Source: a virus. From it: a stretch of 64,000 nucleotides of DNA. Below the pieces are notes generated by a model that searched no databases, was not told the origin of the DNA, and saw only the letters and a list, made by a program, of their open reading frames with translations. Shown in pieces: positions 26,298 through 57,069 of the stretch. A program made the position numbers and the translations under genes. The stretch is from IMG/VR virus record IMGVR_UViG_3300009165_000006, one strand, 5' to 3'. Positions within the stretch are counted from its first letter, which is position 1, and each line of letters starts with the position of its first letter.

Positions 26298-26819
26298 ATG
26301 AAGATCGATACCAAGTTATGGACCTTGAATCAAAGTAGCGGTCCAGTGCTCTTGGTTTGTATTGAGGGCGCTGAGACTTTCTTACTTCGAGACAATGGTG
26401 AGTTAGGGCATCAGGTTGGGAGTAAGATTAAGTGGTATTTCAATAACCGGTTGTCATCAACTCAGGCACTACTTGAGGTAAGGCTTGTTCTTGTACCAGT
26501 ACCTAGGCTAACCCTCTTCGGTGGTCAATTTACAACTAATGAATGGGTTGGGTGGCAAGCTCGGAAGCTAATACAGTTTGCTCAAGAGATGAAAGGATCT
26601 TCGATTGCTGGCACTTTGCACCTGATAGATCTCTGGTCTGAAATCCAGGATGGAATGCCACGAAGGGATCTGGCCCTGCTGTTCTCGTCCTCCAAGTTCG
26701 ATACCTCGGCGCTAACTCCGATACCAGAGTACTGCGGTTGGACTGGAATCTTCAATAGCGATGGAAAAGAAGAGAGCCTTCCTCGAAAGAACCGGTACTC
26801 TAGACCATGGGTTATCTGA
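26298..26819 (+). CDS. hypothetical protein with C-terminal RYxR tail
   Basis: ATG at 26298. Ends ...PRKNRYSRPWVI*. Confidence 0.55.
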   Translation: MKIDTKLWTLNQSSGPVLLVCIEGAETFLLRDNGELGHQVGSKIKWYFNNRLSSTQALLEVRLVLVPVPRLTLFGGQFTTNEWVGWQARKLIQFAQEMKGSSIAGTLHLIDLWSEIQDGMPRRDLALLFSSSKFDTSALTPIPEYCGWTGIFNSDGKEESLPRKNRYSRPWVI

Positions 26820-26898
26820 CCCTCTAGCCGAATTACTAGTCCTCGAACTAATTGGTTGAGAATGTAGAAGCCTGTGCGTAGTACATCGACATAAGTCT

Positions 26899-27291
26899 AT
26901 GCCGATACCTATCCACCAAGAATCAGATCCTGAGATTCCTCGAAACTCGGACCTGGAACGGTGCTGCATCTGCCGAGAACGAACGTCTTGGTGGACTTCC
27001 CTTCCAGACCGTAAACCCGGAGAGCAGGTGGCGATCTGCCCTCATTGTGCATCTCGAGGAAATCCCGAGGACGTCCCCTCGAAGTTGGTTTGGTGCCGGC
27101 GAGAAGACATCGCGTACCACCCGACTTTTGGTGACATCAGTCAAGGTCACGACCGAGAATACCCACCCGCGCCAATAGTTCAACCAGAGGCCAAGAATGA
27201 CCTACTACAGCGACCCAGTCAAAGACAGCGAAGCCCAAAGCATCGTAACTCAAATTCAGGCTCGACTCGCCGAAGTCGGACTCAAGTCTGA
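26899..27291 (+). CDS. Cys-rich hypothetical protein
   Basis: CCICR...CPHC motifs. The basic tail overlaps the next gene by 95 nt. Confidence 0.45.
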   Translation: MPIPIHQESDPEIPRNSDLERCCICRERTSWWTSLPDRKPGEQVAICPHCASRGNPEDVPSKLVWCRREDIAYHPTFGDISQGHDREYPPAPIVQPEAKNDLLQRPSQRQRSPKHRNSNSGSTRRSRTQV

Positions 27292-27997
27292 GATTACCAC
27301 CAACTGGTATCACTATCAGTTAACGGTAAAAGAGCCTCAAGATTACGTAGCATTTCAGGTTTTGGAGGGCGGACTTGAGAGTTTGGAGGGCGGACTTGAC
27401 CGCAAACTAATTGTGGTCTTTAGTACCATTAGGCTAAGTAATGACGGGGAGACCTTATACCATGGGGTCAACCTCAGAGAAGACCTGGAGAACTTCCATG
27501 AGAAGATATTCGATGAAGCCAAGCGCCAGAACGATTGGGTTAAGCAGAAGATACAACGGGAAGTTGAGAGCGCCGAAGCAATCCAAAGTTGCAATCGGAT
27601 CCTTCAACAACTAAAAAACGACTTCCCAACCTATGCCAAGTCCATATTGATTGGGCTGTCGTCTCCTGAGGGGCCTAAGTTCAGCTTGGGGCTCCACGGA
27701 CTTACGGAAGATCGGATCCGTCAAATTCTAAACCTGATCGGGTCACCTTCGATGTACGCAATAATTGGAATTTACTCTGATAAACCTACCATTTGGGGTA
27801 TCGGAGGCACTCCAGATGAGGCCCTAGCTGATGCTCAGAGTAACGGCTTCCAGATATCCAACTGGAGCATCATCCCAATCACCGACGATCAAGTTCGAAT
27901 GATCACCAAGAAGGGGGCCGAGGGTACGGATCCTAGAGCCATTGGAATCGAGCTAGCTGAAAAAGATTGGTTGAACTTAGGATACCGTCGCGCGTAA
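27197..27997 (+). CDS. hypothetical protein
   Basis: 266-aa ORF, ATG start. Confidence 0.65.
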   Translation: MTYYSDPVKDSEAQSIVTQIQARLAEVGLKSEITTNWYHYQLTVKEPQDYVAFQVLEGGLESLEGGLDRKLIVVFSTIRLSNDGETLYHGVNLREDLENFHEKIFDEAKRQNDWVKQKIQREVESAEAIQSCNRILQQLKNDFPTYAKSILIGLSSPEGPKFSLGLHGLTEDRIRQILNLIGSPSMYAIIGIYSDKPTIWGIGGTPDEALADAQSNGFQISNWSIIPITDDQVRMITKKGAEGTDPRAIGIELAEKDWLNLGYRRA

Positions 27998-28169
27998 TAG
28001 GTCCCATACCACTTCACGAACGCATTGCGAAAGCTCTAGGTTGGACGGTCAATGAGACCCAGAGCTTCTCGTTGGCTTCGTTAAGGGATCTGGTTCGTCC
28101 AATCTCTTTGAAGTTGGCCGCTGAGATCACTCAAGCCATCGAGACTGGATCCTACCTTGTAAGCTAATC

Positions 28170-28682
28170 ATGGTCCTTTTCCGCGATATCCCCCTGTTCC
28201 CTCGGGCTCACTACGAGATCGACGTGGATTGGAACTTCCTCGAAAAGTTCATTAGCAATGCCATCAAAGAGGACGGGCTCAACCTTGACCCCGACTTCCA
28301 ACGAGCCCACGTGTGGACTCGGGAACAACAGGTGGCCTACGTCGAGTACATCTTGAAGGGTGGCGAGGTAGGCCGTAATCTAACCTTCAACGCAAAGGGT
28401 TGGGGGTACGATCTTGTAACCGGGTCGTATGAGATCGTGGATGGAAAGCAAAGGCTCGAAGCGGCTCGAGCCTTCCTTCGGGATGACTTTCCAGTCTTTG
28501 GGCACTACCGATCGGAGTATACGGATCGGATGCGGCTCCACGCTGGCTTCAAGTGGCGGATTTGCTCCCTCGAAACTCGAGAGGAAGTCCTCCAACTCTA
28601 CCTCAATATCAATGCCGGTGGGACCCCTCATACGCAAGAGGAACTTGACCGAGTTCGCCACATGCTGCGTTCACGTTCATAG
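28170..28682 (+). CDS. DUF262 (ParB-like/GmrSD N-terminal type) domain protein
   Basis: DPDFQRAHVWTREQQVAYVEYIL and IVDGKQRLEA match the DUF262 FQR..vW / DGQQR blocks. No DUF1524-type nuclease half is present. Confidence 0.6.
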   Translation: MVLFRDIPLFPRAHYEIDVDWNFLEKFISNAIKEDGLNLDPDFQRAHVWTREQQVAYVEYILKGGEVGRNLTFNAKGWGYDLVTGSYEIVDGKQRLEAARAFLRDDFPVFGHYRSEYTDRMRLHAGFKWRICSLETREEVLQLYLNINAGGTPHTQEELDRVRHMLRSRS

Positions 28683-28837
28683 AAGACTCTGGCATCACCG
28701 TCGGACTCATCGAGGCGGTAAGGCACAGAACTCCCGTGCCTCGGCTCCTAAGGGGCTGTTGCCGAGGGTATCTCTTACCTGGATCGCCTCCTGACCCTTC
28801 TCGCGCCCCAGGAAGTACTCGACAAACGTAAAGACCA

Positions 28838-29098
28838 ATGATCTCTCAACTAGCTAATCAACTGTCCTATGCCTTCCTGGGGCTCTCGTTCCTCGTCCTA
28901 TGCACTTGCTTCTGGATGCTCCGGAAAGCTCATAAGCATTTGACCAGAGTCACCAAGATGGCTGCTCCTTGGTGGTTTCTTGAAAGTAAGAAAACTCGGA
29001 TGCTTCCAGATGGGTACCACGAGTTGGCCAATACCCCTGTCGGCGATGCAAGAAAAACCCGAATACTTCCAGTCGGATGCTATGAGAGATCTTCTTGA
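28838..29098 (+). CDS. hypothetical membrane protein
   Basis: 86-aa ORF with N-terminal helix LSYAFLGLSFLVLCTCFWML. Confidence 0.4.
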   Translation: MISQLANQLSYAFLGLSFLVLCTCFWMLRKAHKHLTRVTKMAAPWWFLESKKTRMLPDGYHELANTPVGDARKTRILPVGCYERSS

Positions 29099-29161
29099 GT
29101 CAGAGCTCAGGTAGTGCAGGTGTATGGGATAACGAATCGTCGTAGTCTTGAAGGCAGGCCT

Positions 29162-30669: not shown

Positions 30670-33301
30670 ATGGCCGAAGGTAAGAAGGAACTAGTACTAG
30701 TAAACAACGAGTTTGCATGGGTGAAGGATCTGTCAGGGGGTATGATTTGTGTATTGCGGTCCCCACAAGGAGCCGCTATCCGTAGACTCTGTGATTGTGA
30801 TCCAGAATGCGAATAGAGAGTTCGTTCCGATCGGTGGGGACCAACTGAAGGGGCAGACTTTCGTCCAAGCTCTGGAATCCCAGTACATCATCCTACACAA
30901 TCCCGAGACTCCCGGTGCTCGACTGATGACTCGAGGGAAGAACGAAGCCATAGCTCTCCAAACCGGTAAGTGCATCGTCAAACGTGGTCCATGCGAGTTC
31001 CCTCTTTGGCCTGGTCAGCAAGCGGAGGTTGTTGACGGCCATCGCATGACTTCGGACCAGTTCCTTCGAATTCGAGTAGTGGGGGAAGTGGCTCCTGACG
31101 ACGTCAAGGCTCTTCAGTTGTTACTCAAGGAGGACTGGCTCACCTCAAAGCCCATGCCTCAGCCCGTCAAAGCCGAGGAGCCTGCGGGTCTTTTCATCAT
31201 GGCCAGTGCATCCAAGGATCCGGAACCCGTAGAGGATGAGGTCAAGCTACCCGAGCTAACCATCGGCTCTGAGTGGATTGTCCGCGGAATGAAGACCAAG
31301 TTCTTCATTCCTCCTACTGGGGTTACGGTCCTCCCTGCTAATGACCGTGTGACCATAGGGGAAGACCCTTATGTGATGAATGGCGTTCCGCTCGATGCTG
31401 ATGAGTACGTCATTCTGAAGAACCGCAGTGGTCGAATCAGCTACGTTCTAGGCCCAACAACAGTCACCCCCTGCGAAGACCAAGAGTTTCAAGAATCTAA
31501 CAGTGGGTCTCACAACCCAGTCTTCAAGGCCCAAAGTATCGACGAAAACAGCGGTGTTCTACTCCGAACCCTGTTCCCGATGACTCGCAAGACGATCCAA
31601 GAACGTATGGGCTTGGATGTTCAAGTCCAATTTACTCCAATTGCCAACCCCAATGAGGACGGAGAGGAAAGCGATAGGAGAACACCTTCCTCTGATGAGG
31701 TATTACCTCCAGGGACTCAACTTGTCGTTTGGCGGGAGAAGCGATTGGTCTTCCCGGCGGATGGTATCCAGATCATCAAGAAGTTTGAGGCCATCCACAT
31801 TCTAGCGGGTACTGCTCGGTACGTGAAGAACTCGCTGACGGGTAGAACTCGAATCGTGCAAGGGGAATGTCTATACCTAGCTGATCCCCGATGTGAGGAG
31901 TTCACCAGCCGTCGTCTGACCAAAGAGATGATCGGACTCTGGCTTCCGGGGCAAACCTTCGAGACTTACAACCCCGAACTGGTTCCCTGCATTACCGTTC
32001 CTCAGGGTACGGCCGCCATGATCCTCAAGCGAGGAATTGGCTCAAACACTCGCAAGACCATCATTGGTTATGCCACTTACTTTCTGGAGTGGGACGAGAC
32101 CCTCTGCGAGATGAAGCTCTCGACCTCGCGGGGTGGAGAAGCCAAGACCTATCAGAATGCAATCAAGATCTGCTACCTCTGGATGAAGTCCAATCGAATT
32201 AACGATGCTCTACTGGATGGACGTACCCGGGAGGATTGTGAGTTCTCGATCCAATACACCCTGACGGTTGACTTCGAGGAGGAGCACAATGACTCCTGGT
32301 TCAACGTCGATGACTATGTGTTTCTCGTCTGTGAAGAGGTTCGCTCACGTCTACGCGGAGGTCTCCTTGCTACCTCCATCAGCGAATTGTCCACAAACTA
32401 CGTCGAGATCATCCGAGACATAGTTCTCGGCATGAAGCCCAGTGTACCGCTTAAGAGTGAAGACCCACTAGCCAGGCTAGAAGCCTATACCATACCTCAC
32501 CGCCCAGGAATCGAGTTCCCGAGGTTCGGAGCTCGACTGGTCGACATCAACATCAATGCCTTCAGTATTCGAGATCCAGAACTGCAGGGGCAGCTCCGCC
32601 AACTTCAGATGGCGGGGATCAACGAGTCTGTTCGAACTCGAACAGCTCAGATCATCTTAGATGGGGCTCGAATTCGAGCGGAGATTGAGAGGAACCAAGC
32701 CACCCTTGCCACGGAGACCACCAAGTTCAAGAAGGGTCAGGAGCTTATAAACACTGAGGTGGCTGAAGAGACCACTCGTAAGAAAGGTCAGCAAGAGCAT
32801 CAAACGGCCCTTGCTTACTTGGAAGCGGAAAAGGCTCGGTTATTGGCTGAAGCAAGTAAGAACCTTGAGGTAGCTGCGAAGAATGACGAGCTATCGAAAT
32901 CTCAGCTAACTACTCAAGCTACTCTTGCAGATCTTGGACTCAAGATCACCGAGCTCAAGAAGCTGACTGATCTTGCAGTTCTCGAAGTAACTAGCAAGAA
33001 TATGGAGCTCAAACGTCAAGACGAAACCGAAAAGGTGAAGGCAACTGCCGAGGCCGCTGCTATCGTCAACAACTCGGTCTTACCGACTCTCGGGGCACAC
33101 CTGGCGGAGATTCGAGACTCCCTCGTTGCAGACAAGCTGGTTAGTGCCTTCGGTGCAGCGGCAAGCTTCCGAGGCGTGGAAGTCGTCGAGCTTGCTGCTC
33201 AGACCCTCAGCTCGTTACCCGGTTTGGGATCTGTTCTTGGTCGACTACGTCGGAATCCTTCACGGAATGAAGGCCAGGGTAGCCCTCAAGCGACTAGATA
33301 A
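30670..33301 (+). CDS. major vault protein (MVP)-like protein; N-terminal 26 codons in a different frame (+1 shift near 30746-30752)
   Basis: Track ORF 30749..33301 (GTG start). QYIILHNPE...CEFPLWPGQ parallels MVP [9 protein letters not shown]...DPFPLYPGE. The shoulder-like DDYVFLVCEEVRSRLRG and the long C-terminal coiled coil parallel the MVP shoulder and cap-helix. ATG 30670 ORF (MAEGKKELVLVNNEFAWVKDLSGGMI) aligns with the MVP N-terminus. Confidence 0.75.
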
Positions 33302-33304
33302 TCA

Positions 33305-35902: not shown

Positions 35903-36223
35903 ATGAGAAATCAAGATCTGATGAAGCGAGTTAAAGGACCCGTCGATGTCCCCAATGAGCCTCACTTCGCAATCCTCATCTATGCAACCCGGAGCATCTA
36001 TCACGAGGGAGATGAACGCTCACGCACTTGCCCAGGTCACGGATACCCAGCTCATACGGAAACGCTCGATGCGTTTGAGCACTGGGTGACGACCGAAAAG
36101 TCCTACCTCGAAGAGTTCATCACCGAACTTGATGCCCGAACCGGGTACGACAAGAAGCCTTACGTCATTCTGGAGGTGACCAAGAAAGGTAGCGTGGCTA
36201 GGAGCACCACGGTTCAGTTCTAA
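35903..36223 (+). CDS. hypothetical protein
   Basis: ATG at 35903 with AGGAG 7 nt upstream. Track ORF 35831..36223. Confidence 0.6.
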   Translation: MRNQDLMKRVKGPVDVPNEPHFAILIYATRSIYHEGDERSRTCPGHGYPAHTETLDAFEHWVTTEKSYLEEFITELDARTGYDKKPYVILEVTKKGSVARSTTVQF

Positions 36224-36636
36224 TGGTCCGCCCAGGTTGGCTCCAAGTAGGGCTTCATCTTCGATCGAAAGAAACGCCGAACGACCTCTTCCGAGTCACG
36301 AAGATCGTTCAGGAGTTCGTCGAGCTCGAGGGGATCAACCACCCAGAGGACAATAAACACAGAACGAAAATCGACTACCTCCATGCCTTCTATTGGGCTC
36401 CGGACTACTTCGAATGTGATGACTGTCGACGCAAGCCTGGGGCCCCTACTCTATGTTCTGATTGCCTCAGACGAAGAGAGGAGTTTTACAGTAATGGTAG
36501 GCTTAAATGTGAGCTACCTCGCTTCTGTTCTAAACCTTACAATGGGTACCCGGCGGTTTACCTCCCAATGGGGCTTTCTAATGATGACGTACCAGTTGTG
36601 AGATTGTCTAGATATCAGAGAAAGTGGGTAGTCTAG
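36223..36636 (+). CDS. hypothetical protein with C-terminal RYxR tail
   Basis: TAATG overlap with the previous gene. Ends ...VVRLSRYQRKWVV*. Confidence 0.6.
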   Translation: MVRPGWLQVGLHLRSKETPNDLFRVTKIVQEFVELEGINHPEDNKHRTKIDYLHAFYWAPDYFECDDCRRKPGAPTLCSDCLRRREEFYSNGRLKCELPRFCSKPYNGYPAVYLPMGLSNDDVPVVRLSRYQRKWVV

Positions 36637-36654: not shown

Positions 36655-37135
36655 GTGCCGTTCAACAACATCTTGGACTTCGTTGAAGGCCCGATGGGGC
36701 TGAACTGGACTCTCCTGCCGGTCCAGCGCTTCATTTTGAAGCTATACTACGGGATTGAACTCAATACCTCCGAGCGTCGGATCCAGATCTTTGATCCATT
36801 TCAGGAGACGCTTCGATACAGTCTTTCTGAAGACGACTACTTGAGCTACCTCTTTGAAGAAGGTCGGTGCAACGTCCAGGACCAGTCATTGCTGCCCCGT
36901 CCTGGCCTTGTCCTAGCTGCTGGGCGCAGGACGGGGAAGAGCACCTTGGCAGAGCTAACCGCCAGCTACACGGTCATCCAGCTGCTTCAATTGGGGAACG
37001 CTCATGAGGCCTTTGGTGCTTCGAATCCCAACCTGGGAGGTTCAAGTTCTCCCCAGTGGGTTCCTACGCGAGGAGTTCATGCGGGATCCTCATCGATTCT
37101 GGACTGAGTATGGGGCTGAGTTCGCTCCCAGGTAG
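36655..37135 (+). pseudogene. terminase large subunit-like fragment (N-terminal Walker A segment plus frame-shifted short tail)
   Basis: LLPVQRFILKLYYG and Walker A LAAGRRTGKST are typical of TerL N-termini. After about 120 aa the sense continues in the +1 frame (...LPSGFLREEFMRDPHRFWTEYGAEFAPR*). No Walker B or nuclease domain is present. Confidence 0.45.
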
Positions 37136-38222: not shown

Positions 38223-38765
38223 TCAGATCACCGGGCTACGCTTGTAGCGGCTTGGGATGGTCGTTCGGTCTTTTTTCATGGGCTCCTTCTTCCTCGAAGA
38301 TGAAGGTTCCGGTTCAGACCGTCCTCGCACCCGTTCGACAACAACCTCAAGCCTCTCTCTGATAGGCTCCGTCAGGATGGCGTCAATCAGAGTTCTTCGC
38401 TGAGGGAGATTCAATTCAGTGAGTTCTGTGCGAACCGGCATGAGCCCGACGGACTCTGGCTCAGAATTGAAATAGATATGACCTATGGCGGGGCGAATCC
38501 TTTCCCAGGGCGTCTCTTCAATTAGGTTCTGATTCCTCCTTACTACGACCTGAATGTCATTAGGATTGAATACGACGATCCCACTCTCTATTTGGTTTCG
38601 AAGGCTATTCCAGAAGGTGGCACCCAACTCGCGAGCCAGGTCGAACGGATCCTCGAGTTCACCAGCGCTCCAGGATCGCATAACCTCATCGGTCATTGTG
38701 AATTCAGAGGAGGCTAGGTCCCCACCTTCCCCAATGACTCGAACAAGAACCTGTACCGTTGGCAT
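38223..38765 (-). CDS. hypothetical protein with C-terminal RYxR tail
   Basis: Track ORF 38223..38792 (TTG start). ATG at 38765 preferred. Ends ...TIPSRYKRSPVI*. Confidence 0.6.
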   Translation of the reverse strand: MPTVQVLVRVIGEGGDLASSEFTMTDEVMRSWSAGELEDPFDLARELGATFWNSLRNQIESGIVVFNPNDIQVVVRRNQNLIEETPWERIRPAIGHIYFNSEPESVGLMPVRTELTELNLPQRRTLIDAILTEPIRERLEVVVERVRGRSEPEPSSSRKKEPMKKDRTTIPSRYKRSPVI

Positions 38766-38785
38766 AATCTTAATGAAGCTTACTT

Positions 38786-44484: not shown

Positions 44485-44600
44485 CGAGGCAACTACACCA
44501 GGCTTTGGTGACTCCCCTTAGGATCGTAATGGTAGCCCACTTGTACCCCTATGTTATCTACCTCTTGACCAAGATAGTAAGACAGAGTACACCTACCTAC

Positions 44601-44792
44601 ATGGAATCAGACCAAGCAATCCACTACCTTCTCCATACCTTGTGGACGAAGGCCGTAGGGACTGAGAACTACGACAAATCCGAGTGGAAACGCATGAGCG
44701 CCTTTATCTACGCTCACTTGGACAGAAACAAGATCTACACAAGAAGTCCCCGAAACGATCAACAAGAGGTCGAGCGAAAGCCCGTGATCTAA
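44601..44792 (+). CDS. small hypothetical protein ending ..EVERKPVI
   Basis: ATG at 44601 within track ORF 44460..44792. The C-terminus resembles the RYERKPVI tail but lacks RY. Confidence 0.4.
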   Translation: MESDQAIHYLLHTLWTKAVGTENYDKSEWKRMSAFIYAHLDRNKIYTRSPRNDQQEVERKPVI

Positions 44793-45244
44793 GAGATGGG
44801 CTTGGTGTGAGTGTACCTGGGTTCAACTTCTTTGACCACCTTGTTCAAAAAGTCAGCCAAATGCTTTGCTACCTGAGCCGGAGTACCAGTTTTCCCTCGG
44901 AGTCGATACTCTCGGGGCATAGCCGATAACCTATGCTCGACCTGGACCTTACCTGTTGGTGGGGGGCTGTGTGGAGTCTCCTTTCCGAAGCCTTTGATCG
45001 AGAAGGCCATGCGGTTGTTCTCGGCTTCTGCTCCTCCGCCGGCACTCCCCACACCTTTGGGCAGATTGATGAAATTGACAAACACCGTGTCGTATCGGAC
45101 TCCAGCGAGTTTACTCACGTTGTCGAATTTAATCTGGCGGCCCTGAAGATTGAGATGGGACTCAACCATCTTGATGAACTCTTCGGATCCTCCACTCTCA
45201 GCAGCGAATCTTGTGGCAACTCTCTTGGTTAGATCTTGGGTCAT
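44789..45244 (-). CDS. hypothetical protein
   Basis: 151-aa ORF, ATG start. Confidence 0.6.
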   Translation of the reverse strand: MTQDLTKRVATRFAAESGGSEEFIKMVESHLNLQGRQIKFDNVSKLAGVRYDTVFVNFINLPKGVGSAGGGAEAENNRMAFSIKGFGKETPHSPPPTGKVQVEHRLSAMPREYRLRGKTGTPAQVAKHLADFLNKVVKEVEPRYTHTKPIS

Positions 45245-45249: not shown

Positions 45250-45520
45250 TGAACCTCGATAAGAACTATCGCACGCCTTGACTCCAGTGACGAACTGTGA
45301 ACCGCTTCAACCACTCTTACGCGCGAGCTTGTCTGAATCTCAACTAAATTGAGTATAGCCTTCCAAAAGACCGTTCTGTGAAACTTATTCAAAGTTGCTC
45401 ATAGGAGAACTCCGATGTTCACTTCCTGCTTCAACGAGACATGACTCGTAGGCCGAAGGGTTCTCCTTCGTTCCGCCGCTAGAGGACTCTCCACAGGCTT
45501 TTTAGCGCCGAAGGCGCCTA
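45250..45520 (-). ncRNA. predicted omega RNA (reRNA) region of the TnpB element
   Basis: By analogy with IS200/605 TnpB loci, the guide RNA scaffold overlaps the tnpB 3' end and the right end. The 154-nt non-coding stretch after the stop contains the hairpin CTCAA-CTAAA-TTGAG (45339-45353). Boundaries are not determinable by eye. Confidence 0.35.
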
Positions 45521-46643
45521 GGTTCCTCGGGAACTCCGAGTACCTTTCCAAATTCTTCGCCGCATTCTCATCTCGATCATGAATAGCTCCACATCCTTCA
45601 CAAACCCACTCTCTCACAGAAAGAGCCAGCTGCGGCCGTTTAAGGCCGCAGCTGGTACATATCTTCGAGGATGGGAACCATCGATCAGCTACTTCTAGCT
45701 TAGATCCATACCAAGTGGTCTTGTAGGAAAGTAGCCTCTTACTTTCAAACCACCCTTGGTCCAAGATCGACCGAGAAAGGTGAGGATTCTTACTCATTCC
45801 ACGAATACCAAGGTCTTCCACAACGATGGCTGACTTGGTTTTCGCCAGCCCCGTTGTGAACTTATGAAGGAAATCCCTTCGAACGTTTGCTACTCGTGAG
45901 TGAATCCTCGCTAATCTTTGAGCTGATTTCCTCCTATTTGACGAACCCTTACGCTTCCTCGAATGAGAGCGTTGAGCCCTTCTTAACCGACTTAACGCTT
46001 GTTTCAATGGATTCGGGGCATGTATCTTCGTACAGGCCCCGTCCGAAGAGACCGTAGCGAAAGTAAGAATCCCTAGATCTACCCCAGCTTTTGGTCCTTG
46101 GATAGGAATAGGATCCGTCACGACCTCAACGGTATTGACGGATACGAACCATCGATCTGCTACCCTCGAAATCGTAGCTGAAAGGATCTCCCCACTAATC
46201 CTGCCGTTGATCTTCTCTTTGGTTCGAATAGTCCCAAGCCTAGGGAGCTTAATATACCTAGTTTGTGGCTCAATTGAACCATAGAGACGGAAGGAATCCT
46301 TTGATTTATGCTTCTTTTTGAACTTTGGGAAGCCAACTCCTTCTGATCTTCTGGACCAGAAAGCTTTGAAAGCTTTGTCAAGATCACGAAGAGCTTCCTG
46401 AGGGGCACACTTGGAAACCTCGTACATCCAAGGGAAGTCAGGGCCCTTGCGGGCGTTGAGGTCCCGATGTTCAGCGATGGCGTTGGTGAACTTCTCCTTA
46501 CCTTCTTGGGTTCGGAAGCGTTCGATCCTCCTTTGGAGGGACCAATTCCAAGCGAAGCGAGCCGTTCCGGCATGCTTCGCCAAGAACGTCCGAACCCGAT
46601 TGTTCGGATCTAACTCGAACTTATACGCCTTCCGAAGTTCCAT
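45399..46643 (-). CDS. tnpB: TnpB (IS200/IS605 OrfB-family RNA-guided endonuclease)
   Basis: MELRKAYKFELDPN...FLAKHAGTARFAWNW (OrfB N-terminus), RuvC-I GVDLGILTFAT, RuvC-II AIVVEDLGIRGM, Zn finger CTSCG...CEGCG, RuvC-III HDRDENAAKNL. Confidence 0.92.
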   Translation of the reverse strand: MELRKAYKFELDPNNRVRTFLAKHAGTARFAWNWSLQRRIERFRTQEGKEKFTNAIAEHRDLNARKGPDFPWMYEVSKCAPQEALRDLDKAFKAFWSRRSEGVGFPKFKKKHKSKDSFRLYGSIEPQTRYIKLPRLGTIRTKEKINGRISGEILSATISRVADRWFVSVNTVEVVTDPIPIQGPKAGVDLGILTFATVSSDGACTKIHAPNPLKQALSRLRRAQRSHSRKRKGSSNRRKSAQRLARIHSRVANVRRDFLHKFTTGLAKTKSAIVVEDLGIRGMSKNPHLSRSILDQGWFESKRLLSYKTTWYGSKLEVADRWFPSSKICTSCGLKRPQLALSVREWVCEGCGAIHDRDENAAKNLERYSEFPRNLGAFGAKKPVESPLAAERRRTLRPTSHVSLKQEVNIGVLL

Positions 46644-50291: not shown

Positions 50292-51218
50292 GTGCTAGCA
50301 ACAAGAAAATGCGCATTCGACTCATGCGAGATAGAGTTCGAACCAACACATCCATACCAACAATACTGCTGTACTAGGTGCAAGGAGCGCGCTCGTTGGC
50401 ATCGTTCAGAACAGATTGAAAAATCCAAGAAACGCAGCCAAAAGTGGTACTCCGATCCGGAAAATAAGCTCAACCACAGGGTAGCTCGAAGGGGTAGACG
50501 CATGTCAGTAAAAACTGGTAGAGGTGAATGGGAGATGCCAGCCCCAATGATCGAATACCTACCGGGCGGATGCGTCCCGATTGCTATTGAGTGTGGGTAT
50601 AAGTTCGAACATTGGCAACTTGCATCACTTCACGGAATGATGAGTACGATCACTGGACCTCACTCAGCCAACAACCCAGTATTTACACTGTTTCCGTGGC
50701 ACATAGGGTGCGGATGGGCCGCGTACATTCGAGATATTGAGTTAGCCAGATCGATTGCCATGCGTACACACGTGGTCAACTTCAATGACCGTGAGCAGGA
50801 ACTCGCTCTAGGATGGCTCGTACGTGTCAAAGCACCACAGATCAAGCCAGGTGCTTGGAAACTTCGAATCACAACTATTACACCTGTGTGTTGTCGCGCA
50901 ACTGGAGGGACTTATTACATGGCTCCAACTGCGAACAACATCAAAGGGACTCTTGAGGTAAACGTTGCACGAAGGCTTGGAATAAAGACTGAGAAACACG
51001 ACGTTCAGGTCAGATTGCTTGACTCAAAAGCCTTCTTAGACAAGCTTCGACTATCTGGCAATGGCAGCAAGCTTGGTGACATTTGTGGGTGGTCTGGAAG
51101 CATCGACATTGAAGTGAATGCGCTTGGTAGGCTTCTGCTTGAATGTGCCGCCCTCGGCATGGGATTGGGAGGCAAGTTGGCGTTTGGATTTGGGCGAATC
51201 AAGGTAGAGACAATATGA
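50292..51218 (+). CDS. Cas6-like RAMP protein with N-terminal zinc-ribbon extension
   Basis: The C-terminus GMGLGGKLAFGFGRIKVETI is the glycine-rich loop typical of Cas6/RAMP C-termini. N-terminus CAFDSC...CCTRC. GTG start. First gene of a 6-gene operon. Confidence 0.55.
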   Translation: MLATRKCAFDSCEIEFEPTHPYQQYCCTRCKERARWHRSEQIEKSKKRSQKWYSDPENKLNHRVARRGRRMSVKTGRGEWEMPAPMIEYLPGGCVPIAIECGYKFEHWQLASLHGMMSTITGPHSANNPVFTLFPWHIGCGWAAYIRDIELARSIAMRTHVVNFNDREQELALGWLVRVKAPQIKPGAWKLRITTITPVCCRATGGTYYMAPTANNIKGTLEVNVARRLGIKTEKHDVQVRLLDSKAFLDKLRLSGNGSKLGDICGWSGSIDIEVNALGRLLLECAALGMGLGGKLAFGFGRIKVETI

Positions 51219-52387
51219 GGCCCTCGCCAAGTCAGCTGCTTCACAAAGCAATAGGAAGCCCGCGGGTTGACGGGTGCTCGGAGGCAAACGGTCTTTGCTA
51301 CGTTTGCGCAGGTCCTGTAGTTCGAGGAAAACCCGTTGTCGACTGGTGTACTTCAAGTTACACAGATCAGAATCGTGCGCGTTGTCCTGCAGCAATTTAC
51401 GTCTGTGAGGCATGTTGCATGCTTGCTGCACGTACTTTTCCAGTCCCTGGGCGCCCGCCAGGACAGTGTTCGGTTTGCGAGGGAACCGGAACTGTGAAAA
51501 AGATTCCTCCCAAGGGCAAAGGAAAGGCGTCCAAGATCGGAGACGCTTGCCCTAAGTGTGGTGGTACGGGCGAAGCGTCGTTCGGTGGCAACTTCCGCAA
51601 TTACAGCCACCTATATGAGGAGGGGTGGGATTCACCGTCACTTCCGGATGGAACCGTGATCCCAGGCTACCTGAACGCATCAAAGGGAGAAAAACCGATC
51701 GTGCTTAACTTCCTAAGGCGTGACCACCACGGCATGTGGTTCGCTGCAATCGCAGACAGTGGACAGAAGCATGTGGTGCATCATACACCACCGAACCTGC
51801 TCGGTCCAGGCGGAACGGTGCTGTTCGAGGAGACGCTTGTTAGCATCCCACCAGGTCTCTCGCTGGTAGACGAAATGACAGCACTTCTCACCGCTGGAGC
51901 AACAAAGGAAGAGATTCTCATCGGAGAATATAGCCAGTTCACATGGCTGCGCTTGGAGACAGCAATCCGTGAATTTGAGGGTCGTAACGCGAAGCGGCGG
52001 CATACTGGGTGGTTTCGTTTGGCGCTATGGCTATCTCAACGAGATGAGGCAGCAGTAGCTATAAGGATTGAAGCCGAGAAGGCAGCAGAGAAAGAACGTA
52101 AGGCACGGACCAAACAGAGAACCAAGGAGACTCAAAGTGTTGAAACAGGAAGAAAGAAAGCATCTCGAAACACTTCTTGTCGAGATGCTGTTATCGATCC
52201 GAGACCGGTATGTGAAGGACAAAGGGGGGAAGGTAAAGCCGGACTACCTCGAACAGATCCAAAACCGAGCCAGAACAAGTGCAGAAATGTCACCGACCAT
52301 CAATCGGTGGGTGAACGAGCTTCAAATAGACCTACAAATGCAGAGCATCGACACGTGGGGCAGCTCAGCCTCTTCAACGCTCCTTGA
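51215..52387 (+). CDS. Csf1-like (type IV Cas8-like) zinc-finger large subunit candidate
   Basis: ATGA overlap with the upstream stop. N-terminus CYVCAG...SSYTDQN...VCEACC has the Csf1-like CxxC..FTD-like..CxxC layout. Inserted DnaJ-type CSVCEGTG...CPKCGGTG. The last ~85 codons are low-complexity and overlap the next ORF. Confidence 0.45.
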   Translation: MRPSPSQLLHKAIGSPRVDGCSEANGLCYVCAGPVVRGKPVVDWCTSSYTDQNRARCPAAIYVCEACCMLAARTFPVPGRPPGQCSVCEGTGTVKKIPPKGKGKASKIGDACPKCGGTGEASFGGNFRNYSHLYEEGWDSPSLPDGTVIPGYLNASKGEKPIVLNFLRRDHHGMWFAAIADSGQKHVVHHTPPNLLGPGGTVLFEETLVSIPPGLSLVDEMTALLTAGATKEEILIGEYSQFTWLRLETAIREFEGRNAKRRHTGWFRLALWLSQRDEAAVAIRIEAEKAAEKERKARTKQRTKETQSVETGRKKASRNTSCRDAVIDPRPVCEGQRGEGKAGLPRTDPKPSQNKCRNVTDHQSVGERASNRPTNAEHRHVGQLSLFNAP

Positions 52388-52607
52388 TCTAGTAAGCTTC
52401 TGCGACGAACACTCGTGCCACAGAGAAGCGAAAATGATGGTAATTCGCGATGGTGCGTTCTTGTTTGCATTGCTCCGCAAACAGATCGAACTTCGCAAAG
52501 AAGAACGGGAGCGAGAGAAGCAGGAGCGAATCCTTGGGAAACTTACCAAGGAAGACATGTTGGCAGCAGCAGAAGAGAATGGATTGTTAGTTGAGGAAAC
52601 GGCATAA
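52137..52607 (+). CDS. Cas11-like small subunit candidate
   Basis: GTG at 52137 preceded by AAGGAGA (6-nt spacer). About 156 aa, helical and charged. Sits between the large-subunit-like and Cas7-like genes. Frame is +1 relative to the upstream ORF. Track ORF 52068..52607. Confidence 0.4.
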   Translation: MLKQEERKHLETLLVEMLLSIRDRYVKDKGGKVKPDYLEQIQNRARTSAEMSPTINRWVNELQIDLQMQSIDTWGSSASSTLLDLVSFCDEHSCHREAKMMVIRDGAFLFALLRKQIELRKEEREREKQERILGKLTKEDMLAAAEENGLLVEETA

Positions 52608-53590
52608 TGGAGACAACTCGATACATTTCGGTGGTCAGGGCAGTTCAACCGATCGCGCATCACAAGGGTAGTATCGGAAATCACGCAACGATCATGCGTG
52701 CAGCTGTAAGGCTTCCTGGCGGAGAGATCGCAGACGTGCCAGAGGGCACTGGTAACGCAGTTAGAAATCGATTACGCCGAGCTGCCGCGATCTGTTCATT
52801 GGACGCAGCTGGAATTCTGGGGGATCCCCAACTCGAACGTGGAGCGATGCGGCTGCTGTTCAACGGCGGAATGCTCACTGGAAAGGGTGATGGGACCACG
52901 ATCAACATCGATCGATGGCGCGAGCTTGTGACGCTATTCCCGTTTCTTGGGATCCTTGGGGGTTGCATCGACAATCGTACCCAAGGCGGACAACTCAATG
53001 TTGACGCACTGAAGCTCATCTGCGAGGAAAACATGCACTCGCTAAATCCATGGACGCGACAGTGGCTCAAGGATAACAATGAAGGGATCTGCGAAAGCTC
53101 CTACCTACTTGAGAAAGTTCAACGGGTGAATATGGACCCGGAGATCCTTCCCGAGAACCTGAAACTGCTTTCGGAGGGTGCGAGGTTACAAGTCTATAAC
53201 AAGCTACTAGCACAGGGTAAAGCTCACGAGGAGGGGAACGCGATCGAGGCCGCAAAAGTCAAGAGCGACATGATGCCGCATACGTTCGAGCGAATCATTC
53301 GCGGGTCATTGTTTCAACTGTCGTTCTTGTTGAGGTCTTATAACGAGCTTGAGCGAGACGCTTTCGAGTACGCCTACTCCTGCCTATTGAACAACTTCCG
53401 TTTCGGAGGAAAACAAGCATCAGAACACGGGGAACTCGAATTCCTTGCGGGTGCCAGGGTTCACTTCAAACAATACACAGGAGAGCTCGACATCGGTGAG
53501 CGAAAAGGAACCGGTGATCTGTTCCGAGCGCACGTTACCGATCACAAGGAACAGCTGGTGAACTGGTTACGGCACGAGGTAGCAGCGTGA
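52607..53590 (+). CDS. Csf2/Cas7-like RAMP backbone subunit
   Basis: Three blocks as in Csf2/Cas7: VPEGTGNAVRNRLRR (..GNslRg.lR), LLFNGGMLTGKG (L.sGG.l) and LFPFLGILGG (..P...LFGG). TAATG overlap with the upstream gene. Confidence 0.6.
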   Translation: METTRYISVVRAVQPIAHHKGSIGNHATIMRAAVRLPGGEIADVPEGTGNAVRNRLRRAAAICSLDAAGILGDPQLERGAMRLLFNGGMLTGKGDGTTINIDRWRELVTLFPFLGILGGCIDNRTQGGQLNVDALKLICEENMHSLNPWTRQWLKDNNEGICESSYLLEKVQRVNMDPEILPENLKLLSEGARLQVYNKLLAQGKAHEEGNAIEAAKVKSDMMPHTFERIIRGSLFQLSFLLRSYNELERDAFEYAYSCLLNNFRFGGKQASEHGELEFLAGARVHFKQYTGELDIGERKGTGDLFRAHVTDHKEQLVNWLRHEVAA

Positions 53591-54240
53591 ACTACGAGCC
53601 AATCAAGGTCAGCTGCAAGCTTGCCGAGGGGTTCGTAATGCGAACCCCTACCGTGTTGGATTCACTATTGGCCGCAGTGATAGCAATGCGTGAGCAGTTG
53701 CCTACTCCGATATCCGAGGACGAAATCAAAGAGATCCCAGTACCCATTGACGAAGCTGCTGGGATTCGACTGTGCTCATCGGCCATGTTTGAGATAGAGG
53801 AGACATTCGGCTCATTTCGAACACGACGCCCACCAATCGAAGAATACTGCCACTTTGGAAAGCGTGGTGGTTCCGTATCGATTGCTAGTGGCCCCGACAA
53901 GCTCTATATGATGGAGTATGACTACCAGTTCGCAGTTGACGACAAAGTGACATGGTTTGCATTGGGAGACATTGTCAGTGTACACAACTTACTGACGGAT
54001 GTATTCTACCTCGGCAAACATCGCTCAATCGGCAAAGGGCGGATCATTGAAGGCTCATGGAAGGTTGAAAGCTGTAAACCCTGGGGTGAAGGGTTTCCGG
54101 TGGTTCATAACGGCACTCCGAAGCGTCCCTTGCCGTTAGGTTGGCCTGGCGTGGCCACGACAACCAGGACCGGTTACGCAACGTTACGACCCCCCTATTG
54201 GATGTACTCTCGTGAGGAAGCCTGCTTCCTCCCAGGATAG
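53587..54240 (+). CDS. Csf3/Cas5-like RAMP subunit
   Basis: N-terminus ..RTPTVLDSLLAAVIA (LDgLL-type block) and glycine-rich loop LGKHRSIGKGRI. 217 aa. GTGA overlap with the Cas7-like gene. Confidence 0.5.
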   Translation: MNYEPIKVSCKLAEGFVMRTPTVLDSLLAAVIAMREQLPTPISEDEIKEIPVPIDEAAGIRLCSSAMFEIEETFGSFRTRRPPIEEYCHFGKRGGSVSIASGPDKLYMMEYDYQFAVDDKVTWFALGDIVSVHNLLTDVFYLGKHRSIGKGRIIEGSWKVESCKPWGEGFPVVHNGTPKRPLPLGWPGVATTTRTGYATLRPPYWMYSREEACFLPG

Positions 54241-55701
54241 ATGAAAGCTCTAGCTTGCACGCTCGACACATGGGATGCCTTCGCAAGGGCCACCGGAAGA
54301 ACTGAGACCACCGGTCTCACGTTTCCCCTACGAATACTCGAGATTATCGGAAAGCCCTACGGACTAGAGCTCGAATACGCGAACAAACTGAACCGCCATG
54401 ACGCAGTGTTCATAGCGGTTCACGACTTTAGTTCGATGCTGTCCCTTGGAAAGGCGATGCAGAAGCTGAAATTGCCGCTACTTGCCAAAGACCGCGACCG
54501 AAGTCACCCGCTCGTATGGATGGGCGGACAAGGTACACGCAATCCGCTACCTATTGCCGATATTGCTGACTTGATAGTGCTTGGGGATGCAGAGCTCTCG
54601 CTGCCTCAATTACTCCAAATATGGGAGCGAAATGGGAACAGTAGAGAGTTCCTGGTGGGAGCGTCTACTGTCTCTGGGGTATTCGTTCCTTCGATCCACA
54701 ACGAAAATGAGGTGACCCTGAAAATGGGTTGGTCACCGGATATACGAACTTCACTTCAAAGCAGAAGCCTACCAATGGAACAGCATGCCAGAATCGAGCT
54801 CTCGCGTGGATGCAAGAGCAAGTGCTCATTCTGCGGACTCGGATGGATGGGTCCAGTTCGACATAACACCTTGGACGACGTACGGGATGCTATCCGAGGA
54901 GTGCCTTCGGTCCACCTGCAGGCTTGCGATGCCGAAGCTTACCCGGACATCGTTCGGTTGCGTGAGTGGATGCGCGAGAGAGGAATCAAAGACACCGGGT
55001 GTACCTCACGTCTCGATTCTAATTACGATGCTAGGAGCGAATTTCTATTCGACAAGTTGTTCAATTTCGGAATCGAGGCTGTGACCGAGCGTGTCCGCCG
55101 CAAAATCGGCAAGGCCAGACTAACGAACGACTTCATCGTTGAGGCTATGTGCGGGCTATACGAGAGACAGAAAACGCGGAAGGGTGAAGCCTGTGAGAAG
55201 ACCAATTGGCACATGATCTCTGGACTTCCGGGGGAGTTGGTATCTGAAACCGCGGAACTGGCGCAGACAATCCGAAGGCTCGATGCGACAATGCTGGAAC
55301 GGAGAATCACCGGGCAGCTAACGATCCGATGGCAACCGTTACTACCCTGTCCTGGGACACCACTGCAGTGGTGTCCCATTGGGCCGGATTGCGAGCCGTG
55401 GAGTAAGGCCTTGGCCAGAAACATCCGCAAAACGTACTGTCTGAAGCTAGAACATGGTTCCGGGAGACAGGAACGAAAGCACGCCCTGACCTGTATACTG
55501 ATGCGGTCAGGGCGTGTGGGGGCAAAGCTGATCGCACTTGAGTCAAAGTCTGCGGTTACCCCAGTTGCCGCGGTCGAGCTTACCGGGACGACTACCGGTA
55601 AGCTCGACCTTAGTGGTCCGCTTCCATGGGATTTCGTGCATGGTTACTACCCGCGAGGGGTGCTCGAAAAGGCCTACAAAAAGACCATACAATGCACGTA
55701 G
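54241..55701 (+). CDS. radical SAM enzyme with N-terminal B12-binding-like domain
   Basis: IELSRGCKSKCSFCGLGW gives CX3CX2C at 54811-54834 (aa 191-198). N-terminal VWMGGQGTRNP...DLIVLGDAELSLPQLL resembles the class B (cobalamin-domain) rSAM fold. The start abuts the Cas5-like stop. Confidence 0.8.
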   Translation: MKALACTLDTWDAFARATGRTETTGLTFPLRILEIIGKPYGLELEYANKLNRHDAVFIAVHDFSSMLSLGKAMQKLKLPLLAKDRDRSHPLVWMGGQGTRNPLPIADIADLIVLGDAELSLPQLLQIWERNGNSREFLVGASTVSGVFVPSIHNENEVTLKMGWSPDIRTSLQSRSLPMEQHARIELSRGCKSKCSFCGLGWMGPVRHNTLDDVRDAIRGVPSVHLQACDAEAYPDIVRLREWMRERGIKDTGCTSRLDSNYDARSEFLFDKLFNFGIEAVTERVRRKIGKARLTNDFIVEAMCGLYERQKTRKGEACEKTNWHMISGLPGELVSETAELAQTIRRLDATMLERRITGQLTIRWQPLLPCPGTPLQWCPIGPDCEPWSKALARNIRKTYCLKLEHGSGRQERKHALTCILMRSGRVGAKLIALESKSAVTPVAAVELTGTTTGKLDLSGPLPWDFVHGYYPRGVLEKAYKKTIQCT

Positions 55702-55958: not shown

Positions 55959-55963
55959 ACCCT

Positions 55964-55973
55964 CTATTACGCA
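55964..55973 (-). promoter_or_regulatory. TGCGTAATAG start-proximal motif
   Basis: Minus strand reads TGCGTAATAG AGGGT ATG (ATG at 55958). Confidence 0.45.
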
Positions 55974-56025
55974 TGAAGAACCAATAACTAAACCAAGAAT
56001 CCGAATTTTGGTGTATTAGCACCCC

Positions 56026-56481
56026 ATGGAATACTCAATTCTGGTTGAAGGTGGGTCTATCACATTGGACGAAAAGGTGGATTGTCGAAAGATTATCGAC
56101 GGTTGCATCTACTTAGGCCTTCTCGCCAATTCCAAAAGTGAAGTCAAAACCGAGTCAAAACCCATCTACCTGAAGGTCAGTGCGTACTACTTCCTCAACC
56201 TTGGGTGCCTCGTCATGCTTCGAAACATCAAAGACGACACCGTCCTCGAACACCGATCTGCCATCATCGCTTGGCAGGGTGGTCTCGTAACGCACATGGA
56301 GGTGGACCGTTTCTTGGCCCAGTCCATTCATTGGTCTGCTGTTCGGATAAGAGATGCGGACTTCCTTGGCGGGAGGTTCGCCAAGGGCTACTTCGAACCA
56401 GCATCATCTCTCGCCGAAATCTTCAACCCATCTGAGCCCAGGGTGCCCACTCCAATGAGCGCGGCTCCGGTTCCTAGTTGA
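56026..56481 (+). CDS. hypothetical protein
   Basis: 151-aa ORF, ATG start. Confidence 0.55.
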   Translation: MEYSILVEGGSITLDEKVDCRKIIDGCIYLGLLANSKSEVKTESKPIYLKVSAYYFLNLGCLVMLRNIKDDTVLEHRSAIIAWQGGLVTHMEVDRFLAQSIHWSAVRIRDADFLGGRFAKGYFEPASSLAEIFNPSEPRVPTPMSAAPVPS

Positions 56482-56523
56482 GGATTGACATAGTATTGAA
56501 GCTTGAGCACTGTTCCGCATTGT

Positions 56524-56754
56524 ATGGAACCCAAGAAACTCCGGCAATACGGTAAGGTAATTAACTTCAACCCTATTATAATGGGCTACCCAATCCGTTC
56601 GGTTGCTCCTGCCAAGGGACTTCGTTCAGGTCCCCACCGGGATGGGGACCTGAACAGTGCTCTAGCTATACAGTCTCCTCAGGCACCTCCAACTTCAATG
56701 GTACGAGTAAGTCGATACCAAAGGGTCTTGAATCGGGGGAAATGGTTAATCTAG
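56524..56754 (+). CDS. small protein with extended RYxR tail
   Basis: ATG at 56524 within track ORF 56503..56754. Ends ...VRVSRYQRVLNRGKWLI*. Confidence 0.4.
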   Translation: MEPKKLRQYGKVINFNPIIMGYPIRSVAPAKGLRSGPHRDGDLNSALAIQSPQAPPTSMVRVSRYQRVLNRGKWLI

Positions 56755-56790
56755 TGACATCAGAACCGAGAGCAGTGAACGGGACAACCC

Positions 56791-57069
56791 ATGAGTCAGC
56801 GTAGGTTGGAAGTAAAGGTCCTCCCCGCGAATGGGTCAAGTCCTGAGGTTGTCGAGATCCCACTAGACAATCCGTCAGCCAGCAAGCTCAACTTGTTCGT
56901 CTTTCGACGCCCGACCTCTATGGGCGAACGGGACATCGAAGAGCTCGTTCAGATCTCAACTCAGGTATCTGGGCATCCAGGTGCTGCGATAATTCTCGGA
57001 GAAGAAGACAAGTTTGAAGTGTATGAAGTAGAGATCCCAACCCGGTACGAAAGAAAGCCGGTCATCTAG
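56791..57069 (+). CDS. hypothetical protein with C-terminal RYxR tail
   Basis: 92-aa ORF. Ends ...EIPTRYERKPVI*. Confidence 0.55.
   Translation: MSQRRLEVKVLPANGSSPEVVEIPLDNPSASKLNLFVFRRPTSMGERDIEELVQISTQVSGHPGAAIILGEEDKFEVYEVEIPTRYERKPVI

Follow-up and report, generated by a model that had tools for sequence, protein, structure and literature searches.

Tail-bearing genes of the window

The stretch of DNA analysed here, the window, is the 64,000-nucleotide sequence of the IMG/VR virus record IMGVR_UViG_3300009165_000006. A number of its small proteins, most with otherwise unrelated bodies, end in the same short peptide of the form [STN]RYxRx[PW]V[IV], hereafter the tail. An original prediction, made from the sequence alone, had listed eight C-termini with this peptide or a form related to it, and every one of these is reproduced by translation. 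The genes that carry a tail (carriers), and those with a variant, worn or partial form, are given below; lengths are in amino acids (aa), and ORF denotes an open reading frame.

26265–26819 (+): carrier gene, 173 aa, probable start ATG 26298; tail NRYSRPWVI at 26790–26816
36223–36636 (+): carrier gene, 137 aa, Cys-rich body; tail SRYQRKWVV at 36607–36633
38223–38792 (−): carrier gene, ORF of 189 aa, 180 aa from ATG 38765; tail SRYKRSPVI at 38226–38252
56791–57069 (+): carrier gene, 92 aa; tail TRYERKPVI at 57040–57066
44460–44792 (+): carrier gene, probable start ATG 44601; worn tail QEVERKPVI at 44763–44789
39267–40016 (+): paralogue copy 1, tail deleted; ends ...CREWLLKGNT, with MRSL and its stop persisting in another frame
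40029–40565 (+): paralogue copy 2, Ala-rich body; variant tail TRYQRIMRSL at 40533–40562
40562–41185 (+): paralogue copy 3, in-frame stop at 40916–40918; variant tail TRYQRIMRSLS at 41150–41182
56503–56754 (+): doubtful ORF ending RVSRYQRVLNRGKWLI; N-terminal half of the tail joined to a different, longer C-terminal half
62883–62906 (+): internal NRYERVLN in ORF 62427–63038, after a Pro-rich stretch and with 46 residues beyond the motif
4282–4569 (+): 95-aa homologue of a tail-bearing family (cluster 0); its end, ...APISRLRSG, resembles a decayed tail

The claim that at least seven ORFs with unrelated bodies share the peptide survives in part. The five main carriers fall into separate BLAST clusters, but the two ORFs ending TRYQRIMRSL(S) are tandem paralogues of each other, and 56503–56754 is doubtful as a gene because it has no gene call in the JGI records. 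Comparison with loci sampled from relatives (designated L plus a number) clarifies several of the remaining cases. The L005 orthologue of 26265–26819 retains the tail; ORF 56791–57069 has a gene call in four public contigs, and its distant homologue L010:4724-5002 ends PPTRYEREPVI. The end of 44460–44792, listed earlier as a related form (QQEVERKPVI), has lost R-Y and kept ERKPVI, and since its orthologue in a syntenic relative (L006:8032-8229) ends PTRYERKPVI, we regard it as a genuine but worn member. The internal NRYERVLN represents the N-terminal half of the motif only.

The variant tails belong to a family of Ala-rich paralogues with AARAA/WAA-type repeats (region 38893–41185, +), which comprises three full copies at 39267–41185 and a partial match at 39010–39201. 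Each paralogue begins VITITSELLE exactly at the stop of the preceding gene, and the counterpart of copy 3 in L005 is uninterrupted (199 aa). The family has a weak match to a PHROG annotated as head scaffolding (E value 1.6e-4).

Anatomy, selection and distribution of the tail

The motif [STN]RYxRx[PW]V[IV] followed directly by a stop occurs four times in the window, compared with 0.0 times (maximum 0) in 200 dinucleotide shuffles; the scan of C-termini against shuffled controls that the original prediction had proposed thus reveals enrichment when run on the window. Similarly, 4 of 102 predicted proteins have RY.R among their 15 C-terminal residues, where 2000 residue shuffles give a mean of 0.16, and a six-frame count over open stretches of at least 30 codons finds 25 RY.R in the window, eight of them no more than 13 residues from a stop. 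The codons for Arg and Tyr vary among tail copies, and the 60 nucleotides on each side of the stops are without similarity. Because codons are scrambled and flanks unrelated, selection acts on the peptide and not on a DNA element, as had been proposed. Nucleotide similarity of tail copies and flanks, as in a mobile DNA cassette or repeat, was not found, and a cassette is rejected on the same two observations.

Across all loci we recovered 81 distinct carriers in at least 29 BLAST clusters, with a median length of 137 aa (range 65–317 aa). That the tail could be a fragment of one duplicated gene, which had been named beforehand as grounds for rejecting a functional tag, is rejected on the basis of these clusters, which have no detectable similarity between bodies. 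The shared peptide is 9–11 residues long, and a position table over carriers, counted back from the last residue (position 0), gives the consensus R-[VLIP]-[ST]-R-Y-x-R-x-[PW]-V-I:

Position −10: R
Position −9: V, L, I or P
Position −8: S or T
Position −7: R
Position −6: Y
Position −5: any residue, mostly E
Position −4: R
Position −3: any residue
Position −2: P or W
Position −1: V
Position 0: I

An alignment assembled with a relaxed selection pattern shows no variation at R, Y and R and at least 90% conservation of the terminal V-I. Full motifs stand at the very C-terminus of an open frame in 88 of 88 instances, and none is internal. The 20 residues preceding the tail contain 14% Pro, compared with 6% in the bodies, and are also enriched in Glu and Lys. 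One carrier family has three transmembrane helices followed by a strongly basic segment and the tail, with the C-terminus predicted to be cytoplasmic; another has a single N-terminal transmembrane helix and, again, a tail predicted to be cytoplasmic. Some families (clusters 0 and 1) form tandem arrays of paralogues of about 100 aa. The sole confident domain among the carriers in Pfam, PHROG and NCBIfam is that of a 96-aa protein resembling Thoeris anti-defence 2 (Tad2-like; L007:4829-5116, −, in IMGVR_UViG_3300037067_010056; Pfam E value 4e-9), which ends RVSRYNREPVI; the others are ORFans.

None of the 81 carriers matched the NCBIfam and Pfam models of sorting signals (LPXTG, PEP-CTERM, GlyGly-CTERM, T9SS CTD and others), and the tail, unlike sorting signals built on a transmembrane helix, has no hydrophobic helix. 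The motif was not found in family libraries, nor in the literature searched (with motif strings, and for C-terminal tags in huge phages). As a membrane anchor or basic patch the tail can be rejected, because a motif with S/T, R, Y and R invariant and Pro at −2 is more specific than such a role calls for and because carriers that are already membrane-anchored have it too.

Homologues tend to keep the tail while the sequence before it changes. Four homologues of the 137-aa carrier (55–95% identity) all end [SP]RY[QK]R.W[VL][IV]; the ends in this family are LSRYQRKWVV, LSRYQRPWVI, LSRYKRSWLI and VPRYKRPWVV, and the ten residues before them vary freely. Homologues of the 189-aa carrier at 40–50% identity end IPTRYNRKPVI and IPTRYRRNPVI. 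More generally, orthologues at 40–58% identity retain the tail as the preceding linker drifts, and L006, a syntenic contig of 12 kilobases (kb), has five tails. In other cases the gene is kept and the tail is lost or decayed, as in 4282–4569, 39267–40016 (by deletion) and 44460–44792 (partly worn). The tail is therefore under selection as a peptide, strictly terminal, portable between unrelated proteins and dispensable for the body to which it is attached.

Searches of IMG/VR at the protein level, with the 189-aa carrier and with the homologue of major vault protein (MVP) encoded at 30749–33301 (the MVP-like protein), found nothing, and relatives were found instead with back-translated DNA patterns of the tail. 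The first pattern matched two IMG/VR contigs only, each several times, and the pieces fetched from them are dense in tail-bearing ORFs. An extended pattern matched three IMG/VR contigs (two of these more than once) and 37 metagenomic loci, about 29 of them true, with the 443-kb contig Ga0265338_10000010 among these; the 185,579 species genomes scanned gave six matches, none at an ORF end. To remove dependence on the motif, the last 14 residues of all predicted genes were clustered without reference to it. This recovers the tail in the window (five genes), in L062 (eight) and in 10 other clade loci, with no cluster in the clade locus L020. L062 was fetched via its MVP gene and not via tails, and has 8–9 tails in 22.6 kb. 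No shared end emerged from five control loci (Uhrbacteria loci, L063, 50 kb of LR745208.1 and 50 kb of Tunturi_5), nor from seven of eight loci of other huge-phage lineages; the eighth, L075, has one three-member cluster without an evident common motif. In loci not chosen for tails, 4–20% of genes carry one. The tail is thus confined to one clade of uncultivated huge phages.

Other huge phages have different shared ends. In L066 (GCA_040961665.1, JBFOMY010000035.1, 421 kb), 13 ORFs between 1252 and 17340 end [KR]TALER[IL]L.[DE][DE]..[LVF], in 20 kb for which gene calls range from 46 to about 54 genes. This end, KTALERILxDExxL, follows a Pro-containing linker, and L066 has no RYxRxPVI tails. 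Its core, [ST]-x-hydrophobic-E-R-[IV]-[LM], resembles the variants TRYQRIMRSL, SRYQRVLNRGKWLI and NRYERVLN of the window. In IMG/VR a KTALERIL DNA pattern gave 15 single matches, all by chance and without a C-terminal tag like that of L066 among them. In L069 (IMGVR_UViG_3300010429_000387, 407 kb) the variants SRFERDFDI, DRFSREPVV and DRFEREDPV keep the spacing to the C-terminus unchanged; the two large proteins among them (504 and 459 aa) have no annotation from Pfam or GenBank phages. The variant-tail ORFs are:

L069, 1418–2932, 7400–8779 and 18390–18626: proteins of 78–504 aa

On these sequences, phages of this group have a small family of C-terminal tags that differ by lineage, and the tail of the window is one of them. 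Such a family argues for a receptor that co-evolves with the tag, and most simply for one encoded by the phage.

The phage and its other genes

The window is matched by metagenome contigs, among them one from JGI 3300009146, and by no GenBank phage at the DNA level; it contains no tRNA genes. Its relatives lie on contigs of 226, 435 and 443 kb, and three are IMG/VR viral contigs. A gene resembling the terminase large subunit lies directly downstream of the 137-aa carrier and is similar to gp1 of Tunturiibacter phage Tunturi_5 (309 kb) and to a gene of the uncultured phage LR745208.1 (485 kb). Neighbouring genes in relatives encode P22 antirepressor, T5orf172, Thg1, HU and R2K ATP-grasp domains. 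From the terminase relatives, the large contigs, the viral records and these neighbours, we assign the window to an uncultivated clade of huge tailed phages.

Scans of the window with Pfam and PHROG identified auxiliary functions (ADP-ribosylglycohydrolase, RNA ligase, CCA-adding enzyme, GmrSD, two TnpB, radical SAM, a Csf3-like protein and a ThiF/MoeB-type enzyme) and no capsid, portal, prohead protease or other structural gene. Genes that bear on the interpretation, or that were observed in passing, are as follows.

30749–33301 (+): MVP-like protein, 850 aa, GTG start; colinear with the shoulder and cap helix of eukaryotic MVP
36655–37129 (+): terminase-large-subunit-like gene; residues about 126–261 deleted and the frame changed
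16599–17345 (+): ThiF/MoeB-type E1-like enzyme, 248 aa; GAGGLG...NLQRQ and a C-terminal CxxC; Pfam ThiF E value 2.2e-72
44789–45244 (−): conserved ORFan, 151 aa
115–1572 (+): TnpB/IS605 OrfB-type gene
45399–46643 (−): TnpB/IS605 OrfB-type gene with full helix-turn-helix, OrfB and TNB domains
50292–55701 (+): gene cluster including a Csf3-like gene (53587–54240; Pfam Csf3 in a public gene call) and a radical SAM gene with Radical_SAM_N2 (54241–55701)
7285–7737 (+): prepilin-type N-terminal methylation motif (Pfam N_methyl, E value 1.3e-5), conserved in several relatives

The terminase-like gene is intact in L005 and L006 (304–315 aa), and the copy in the window is either a pseudogene or an assembly error. 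The ThiF gene was placed at its coordinates by the signature GxGxxG...NLxRQ; no ubiquitin-like or E2 partner was recognised near it. The two TnpB genes imply that insertion sequence elements are present in the phage genome, and the cluster at 50292–55701 may be what is left of a type IV CRISPR-Cas-like system.

A 102-kb contig (P0008) encodes a protein with 100% identity to the MVP-like protein, and homologues at 61–100% identity occur on huge phage contigs of 102, 226, 435 and 443 kb. Homologues at 42–46% identity occur in the chromosomes of Candidatus Uhrbacteria and other bacteria, beside rpmE, prfA, rpsB, tsf and tdk. Bacterial and phage homologues of MVP have been described earlier (bioRxiv 10.1101/872010; 10.1101/2023.11.10.566534). 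The nearest cellular relatives are those of Candidatus Uhrbacteria, a lineage of the candidate phyla radiation (CPR), and this sequence relationship is a hint that Patescibacteria have exchanged genes with the phage or serve as its host.

A proposed docking tag and its known counterparts

We consider it probable (about 0.7) that the tail serves as a short linear motif for docking, a modular C-terminal tag that one clade-specific receptor recognises in trans. Of the earlier suggestion that it is a sorting, docking or cargo-loading tag, the general idea holds: the tail is modular, occurs on at least 29 unrelated families, is terminal in every full instance, follows a Pro/Glu/Lys-rich linker, and is kept in orthologues yet can be lost. 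The specific targets proposed, the capsid and the MVP-like shell, are not supported. A typical carrier would consist of a small folded body, a flexible Pro/Glu/Lys-rich linker and the terminal tag peptide. The tag would lie as an extended strand in a groove on one receptor, which would also accommodate the free carboxylate, as suggested by the conservation of alternate positions (−10, −8, −6, −4, −2 and 0), by Pro or Trp at −2 and by the lack of anything after Ile. A phage-encoded receptor that co-evolves with the tag seems most likely, given that a related lineage has a different tag and that the cellular genomes scanned lack the motif. Reading would take place in the host cytoplasm, since the tails of membrane-bound carriers are predicted to lie on that side. 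The outcome would be that dozens of unrelated accessory proteins, one of them Tad2-like, are gathered at one machine or place.

Several points weigh against this interpretation. A search for the receptor in the window and sampled neighbours found no PDZ, tail-specific protease, TPR or AAA+ protease family. Binding as an extended strand is read solely from the pattern of conservation, and the receptor may instead be encoded by the host, perhaps one outside the genome collection. The strict pattern with which species genomes were scanned picks up no more than about 28% of known tails, and the sampled sequence amounts to some 300 kb from genomes of roughly 440 kb, mostly chosen for containing tails. 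An AlphaFold2 (AF2) model of one carrier, built on a 5-sequence alignment, is poor (mean predicted local distance difference test score, pLDDT, 44.5) and says little.

A candidate hub is the 151-aa ORFan at 44789–45244, which is the most conserved ORFan of the syntenic block (77–79% identical to its relatives where neighbours are about 50% identical), has invariant GGGAEAENNRM and LADFLNKV motifs, and yields a confident AF2 model (pLDDT 86) of an alpha+beta sandwich that is weakly RWD/UBC/frataxin-like. Its 73 homologues are all on metagenomic contigs, of up to 435 kb. However, it also occurs in lineages without a shared tail in the flanking 20 kb, and hence is not specific to the tag; the L066 lineage has it at 67% identity. 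In L067 a homologue directly follows a phage ClpX gene (L067:8699-9970), an adjacency that we treat as a lead and not as evidence because it is found in one distant lineage only.

What machine would read the tag is a more tentative matter. We rank an AAA+ unfoldase or protease, or a tether to one, ahead of the prohead interior (for co-injection), with another phage-built assembly in third place; the weights given to these two named machines, to modification of the C-terminus and to the MVP-like shell are all contained within the probability of a docking tag. In the AAA+ version, which is conceivable though well short of an even chance, carriers could be substrates with a two-part degron of ssrA-like build (an adaptor half R-x-S-R-Y-x-R and a pore half x-P-V-I-COOH), or they could be adaptors that use their C-terminal peptide as a tether, in the manner of SspB with its XB peptide. 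Such a system might clear early proteins at a set time or hand over host targets. The universally free C-terminus, a hydrophobic last dipeptide after basic residues (V-I at −1 and 0, which are positional data only), the flexible linker, the predicted cytoplasmic tails of membrane carriers and the ease with which tails are lost all fit, as does the ClpX of the distantly related L067 phage, and the tail resembles the MuA peptide RRKKAI, ssrA and SspB-XB. Set against this are the lack of ClpX, ClpP, Lon or FtsH in the window or sampled clade loci, the lack of a shared tail in the 20 kb of the ClpX-bearing lineage, the seven or eight conserved positions, which exceed the need of most degrons, and the fact that a degron on a Tad2-like sponge has no obvious use. 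In capsid loading, the main target idea of the original prediction and in our view a little less probable, the tail would bind the inner face of the procapsid or its scaffold and thereby get accessory and anti-defence proteins packaged for injection along with the DNA. Its appeal lies in an anatomy of body, linker and peptide like that of encapsulin loading peptides and the HK97 protease C-terminal targeting region, in small accessory carriers, one of them Tad2-like, in a tailed huge phage with one carrier directly upstream of the terminase-like gene, and in the weak head-scaffolding match of the variant-tail paralogues. Other giant phage heads also hold about 50 different proteins (PMC7411985, PMC10052503). 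But carriers with three transmembrane helices or an N-terminal anchor should not enter the head of a tailed phage; no capsid, portal, scaffold or prohead-protease gene was detected near carriers; the absolute terminal position is foreign to known loading peptides; and the share of carriers among genes in loci not chosen for tails, given above, also argues against it.

The remaining alternatives are distinctly weaker. The tail could mark substrates of an enzyme acting on the C-terminal carboxylate, an E1/ThiF-type enzyme or R2K ATP-grasp ligase that conjugates or extends tagged proteins. This would suit the strictly free C-terminus, the ThiF/MoeB-type protein of the window and the R2K ATP-grasp genes (E value 7e-39) beside tail genes in sampled clade loci, which are assigned by size only to L017:4589-5863 and L045:4815-6089 (425 aa); the R2K clade is predicted to comprise protein-modifying peptide ligases (PMC4431377; PMC7824862). 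We nevertheless find it improbable, given that R2K occurs in one sub-lineage only and not in the window, that neither it nor ThiF is consistently linked to the tail, and that no E2-like, JAB or ubiquitin-like partner was identified. Known E1 substrates, moreover, end in Gly-Gly or other small residues and not in Pro-Val-Ile. More improbable still is the other target put forward by the original prediction, a cargo signal for the vault-like shell of the MVP-like protein. The gene does lie among carriers, both occur on the huge contigs of the clade, the tail-rich L062 was itself fetched via MVP, and the protein is colinear with the shoulder and cap helix of its eukaryotic counterpart. But the Uhrbacteria MVP loci scanned have no tails, and neither does L063, a 93-kb contig with an MVP homologue; a cargo signal that co-occurs with MVP was thus not found there, the tail is not the native cargo signal of MVP-type shells, and what remains is co-residence in the phage. 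The DNA scan of species genomes found no true tail, eukaryotic vault cargo is recruited through a folded INT domain and not a terminal peptide, and membrane carriers do not fit a shell. Least credible, and largely refuted, is the view that the tail does not function as a tag and is instead what remains of one duplicated gene or domain, a mobile DNA cassette, or a patch of generic kind (basic or membrane-binding). Two of the seven cases listed earlier are indeed tandem paralogues and some families form tandem arrays, but the many clusters with dissimilar bodies, the dissimilar DNA and scrambled codons, the retention by orthologues of tail and not linker, and a motif too specific for an amphipathic anchor all contradict it.

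Returning to the docking tag, a broader possibility, which we offer as speculation and hold to be less likely than not, is that these huge phages have an addressing system for proteins that the virus itself encodes. Lineage-specific tags (RΦSRYxRx[PW]VI in the window clade, KTALERILxDExxL in the 421-kb relative, RFxR variants in the 407-kb relative) would then direct accessory and anti-defence proteins by the dozen to a destination built by the phage, be it a compartment or a particle (the procapsid, an MVP-like shell or a replication compartment, for example). If true, viruses would possess a counterpart of PTS1 and other signals that target proteins to organelles. A docking tag would in any case offer a first way into the function of a large body of phage "dark matter", in that its carriers would share one partner or fate, and may lead to a new phage machine or compartment. 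Should it load a particle or govern stability, biotechnology would gain a portable tag that is ready to use. The tag is also usable as a sequence signature for recognising members of the clade in metagenomes.

Shared terminal tags sort proteins in cells and in a few viruses; PTS1, encapsulin peptides, ssrA and the T4 capsid targeting sequence are examples. Sorting and docking tags of this kind are therefore known, and it is the present motif that is new to the libraries and literature searched. The closest in anatomy are encapsulin loading peptides and the targeting region of the HK97 maturation protease, which also belong to the phage/HK97 world and in which a short C-terminal peptide after a flexible linker brings unrelated cargo to one shell that reads it. 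The C-terminal position after a flexible linker is shared by the tail, but its consensus lacks the Gly/Ser/Leu-rich loading motif (LTVGSLRR-like, or (D/E)xxLxIGSL-type), it has no shell partner shown, it occurs on far more carrier families, some of them membrane proteins, and it is strictly terminal. No HK97-fold shell gene was found among the 97 proteins of the window and 146 neighbouring proteins, which sample part of each genome. The T4 capsid targeting sequence of IPI–III and Alt is likewise a prohead tag of about 10 residues shared by unrelated phage proteins, including an anti-restriction protein. It is, however, N-terminal and cut by the prohead protease, whereas the tag of the huge phages is C-terminal with no protease or cleavage site known; an N-terminal tag with a prohead-protease site was not found, and no prohead protease was detected in the window.

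Among peptides read by AAA+ machines, ssrA, SspB XB and the MuA ClpX tag are C-terminal, about 11 residues long and recognised through the carboxylate and the last aliphatic residues. The two-part build of ssrA, and the plan of SspB (a body, a long flexible linker and a terminal tether), may be likenesses to the huge-phage tag. The sequences are unrelated to AANDENYALAA or LRVVK, and the huge-phage tag is encoded in the genome on many proteins and not added by tmRNA, with no unfoldase found in the sampled DNA of the clade. PTS1 (-SKL) and viral PDZ-binding motifs are also located at the extreme C-terminus of many unrelated proteins and read through the carboxylate, and allow viruses to reach one hub. 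These are eukaryotic motifs of 3–4 residues, and the viral ones copy those of the host, whereas the huge-phage tag has 7–8 fixed positions and occurs in no cellular genome scanned. Its hydrophobic residues at 0 and −2 would fit a class II PDZ ligand, but the window and sampled neighbours contain no PDZ receptor. In poxviruses, ankyrin/PRANC (F-box-like) accessory proteins with variable bodies share a C-terminal module that docks on a common machine; PRANC differs in being a folded domain of about 40–50 residues in one repeat family that engages a host ligase, compared with an 11-residue linear peptide on unrelated bodies. Finally, the clamp-binding tails of T4 gp43, gp33 and gp55 show that unrelated phage proteins can use a short C-terminal peptide to bind one phage-encoded ring. 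Those tails are acidic-hydrophobic and confined to a handful of replication and transcription proteins, whereas the tag described here is basic-aromatic and is carried by dozens of ORFans.

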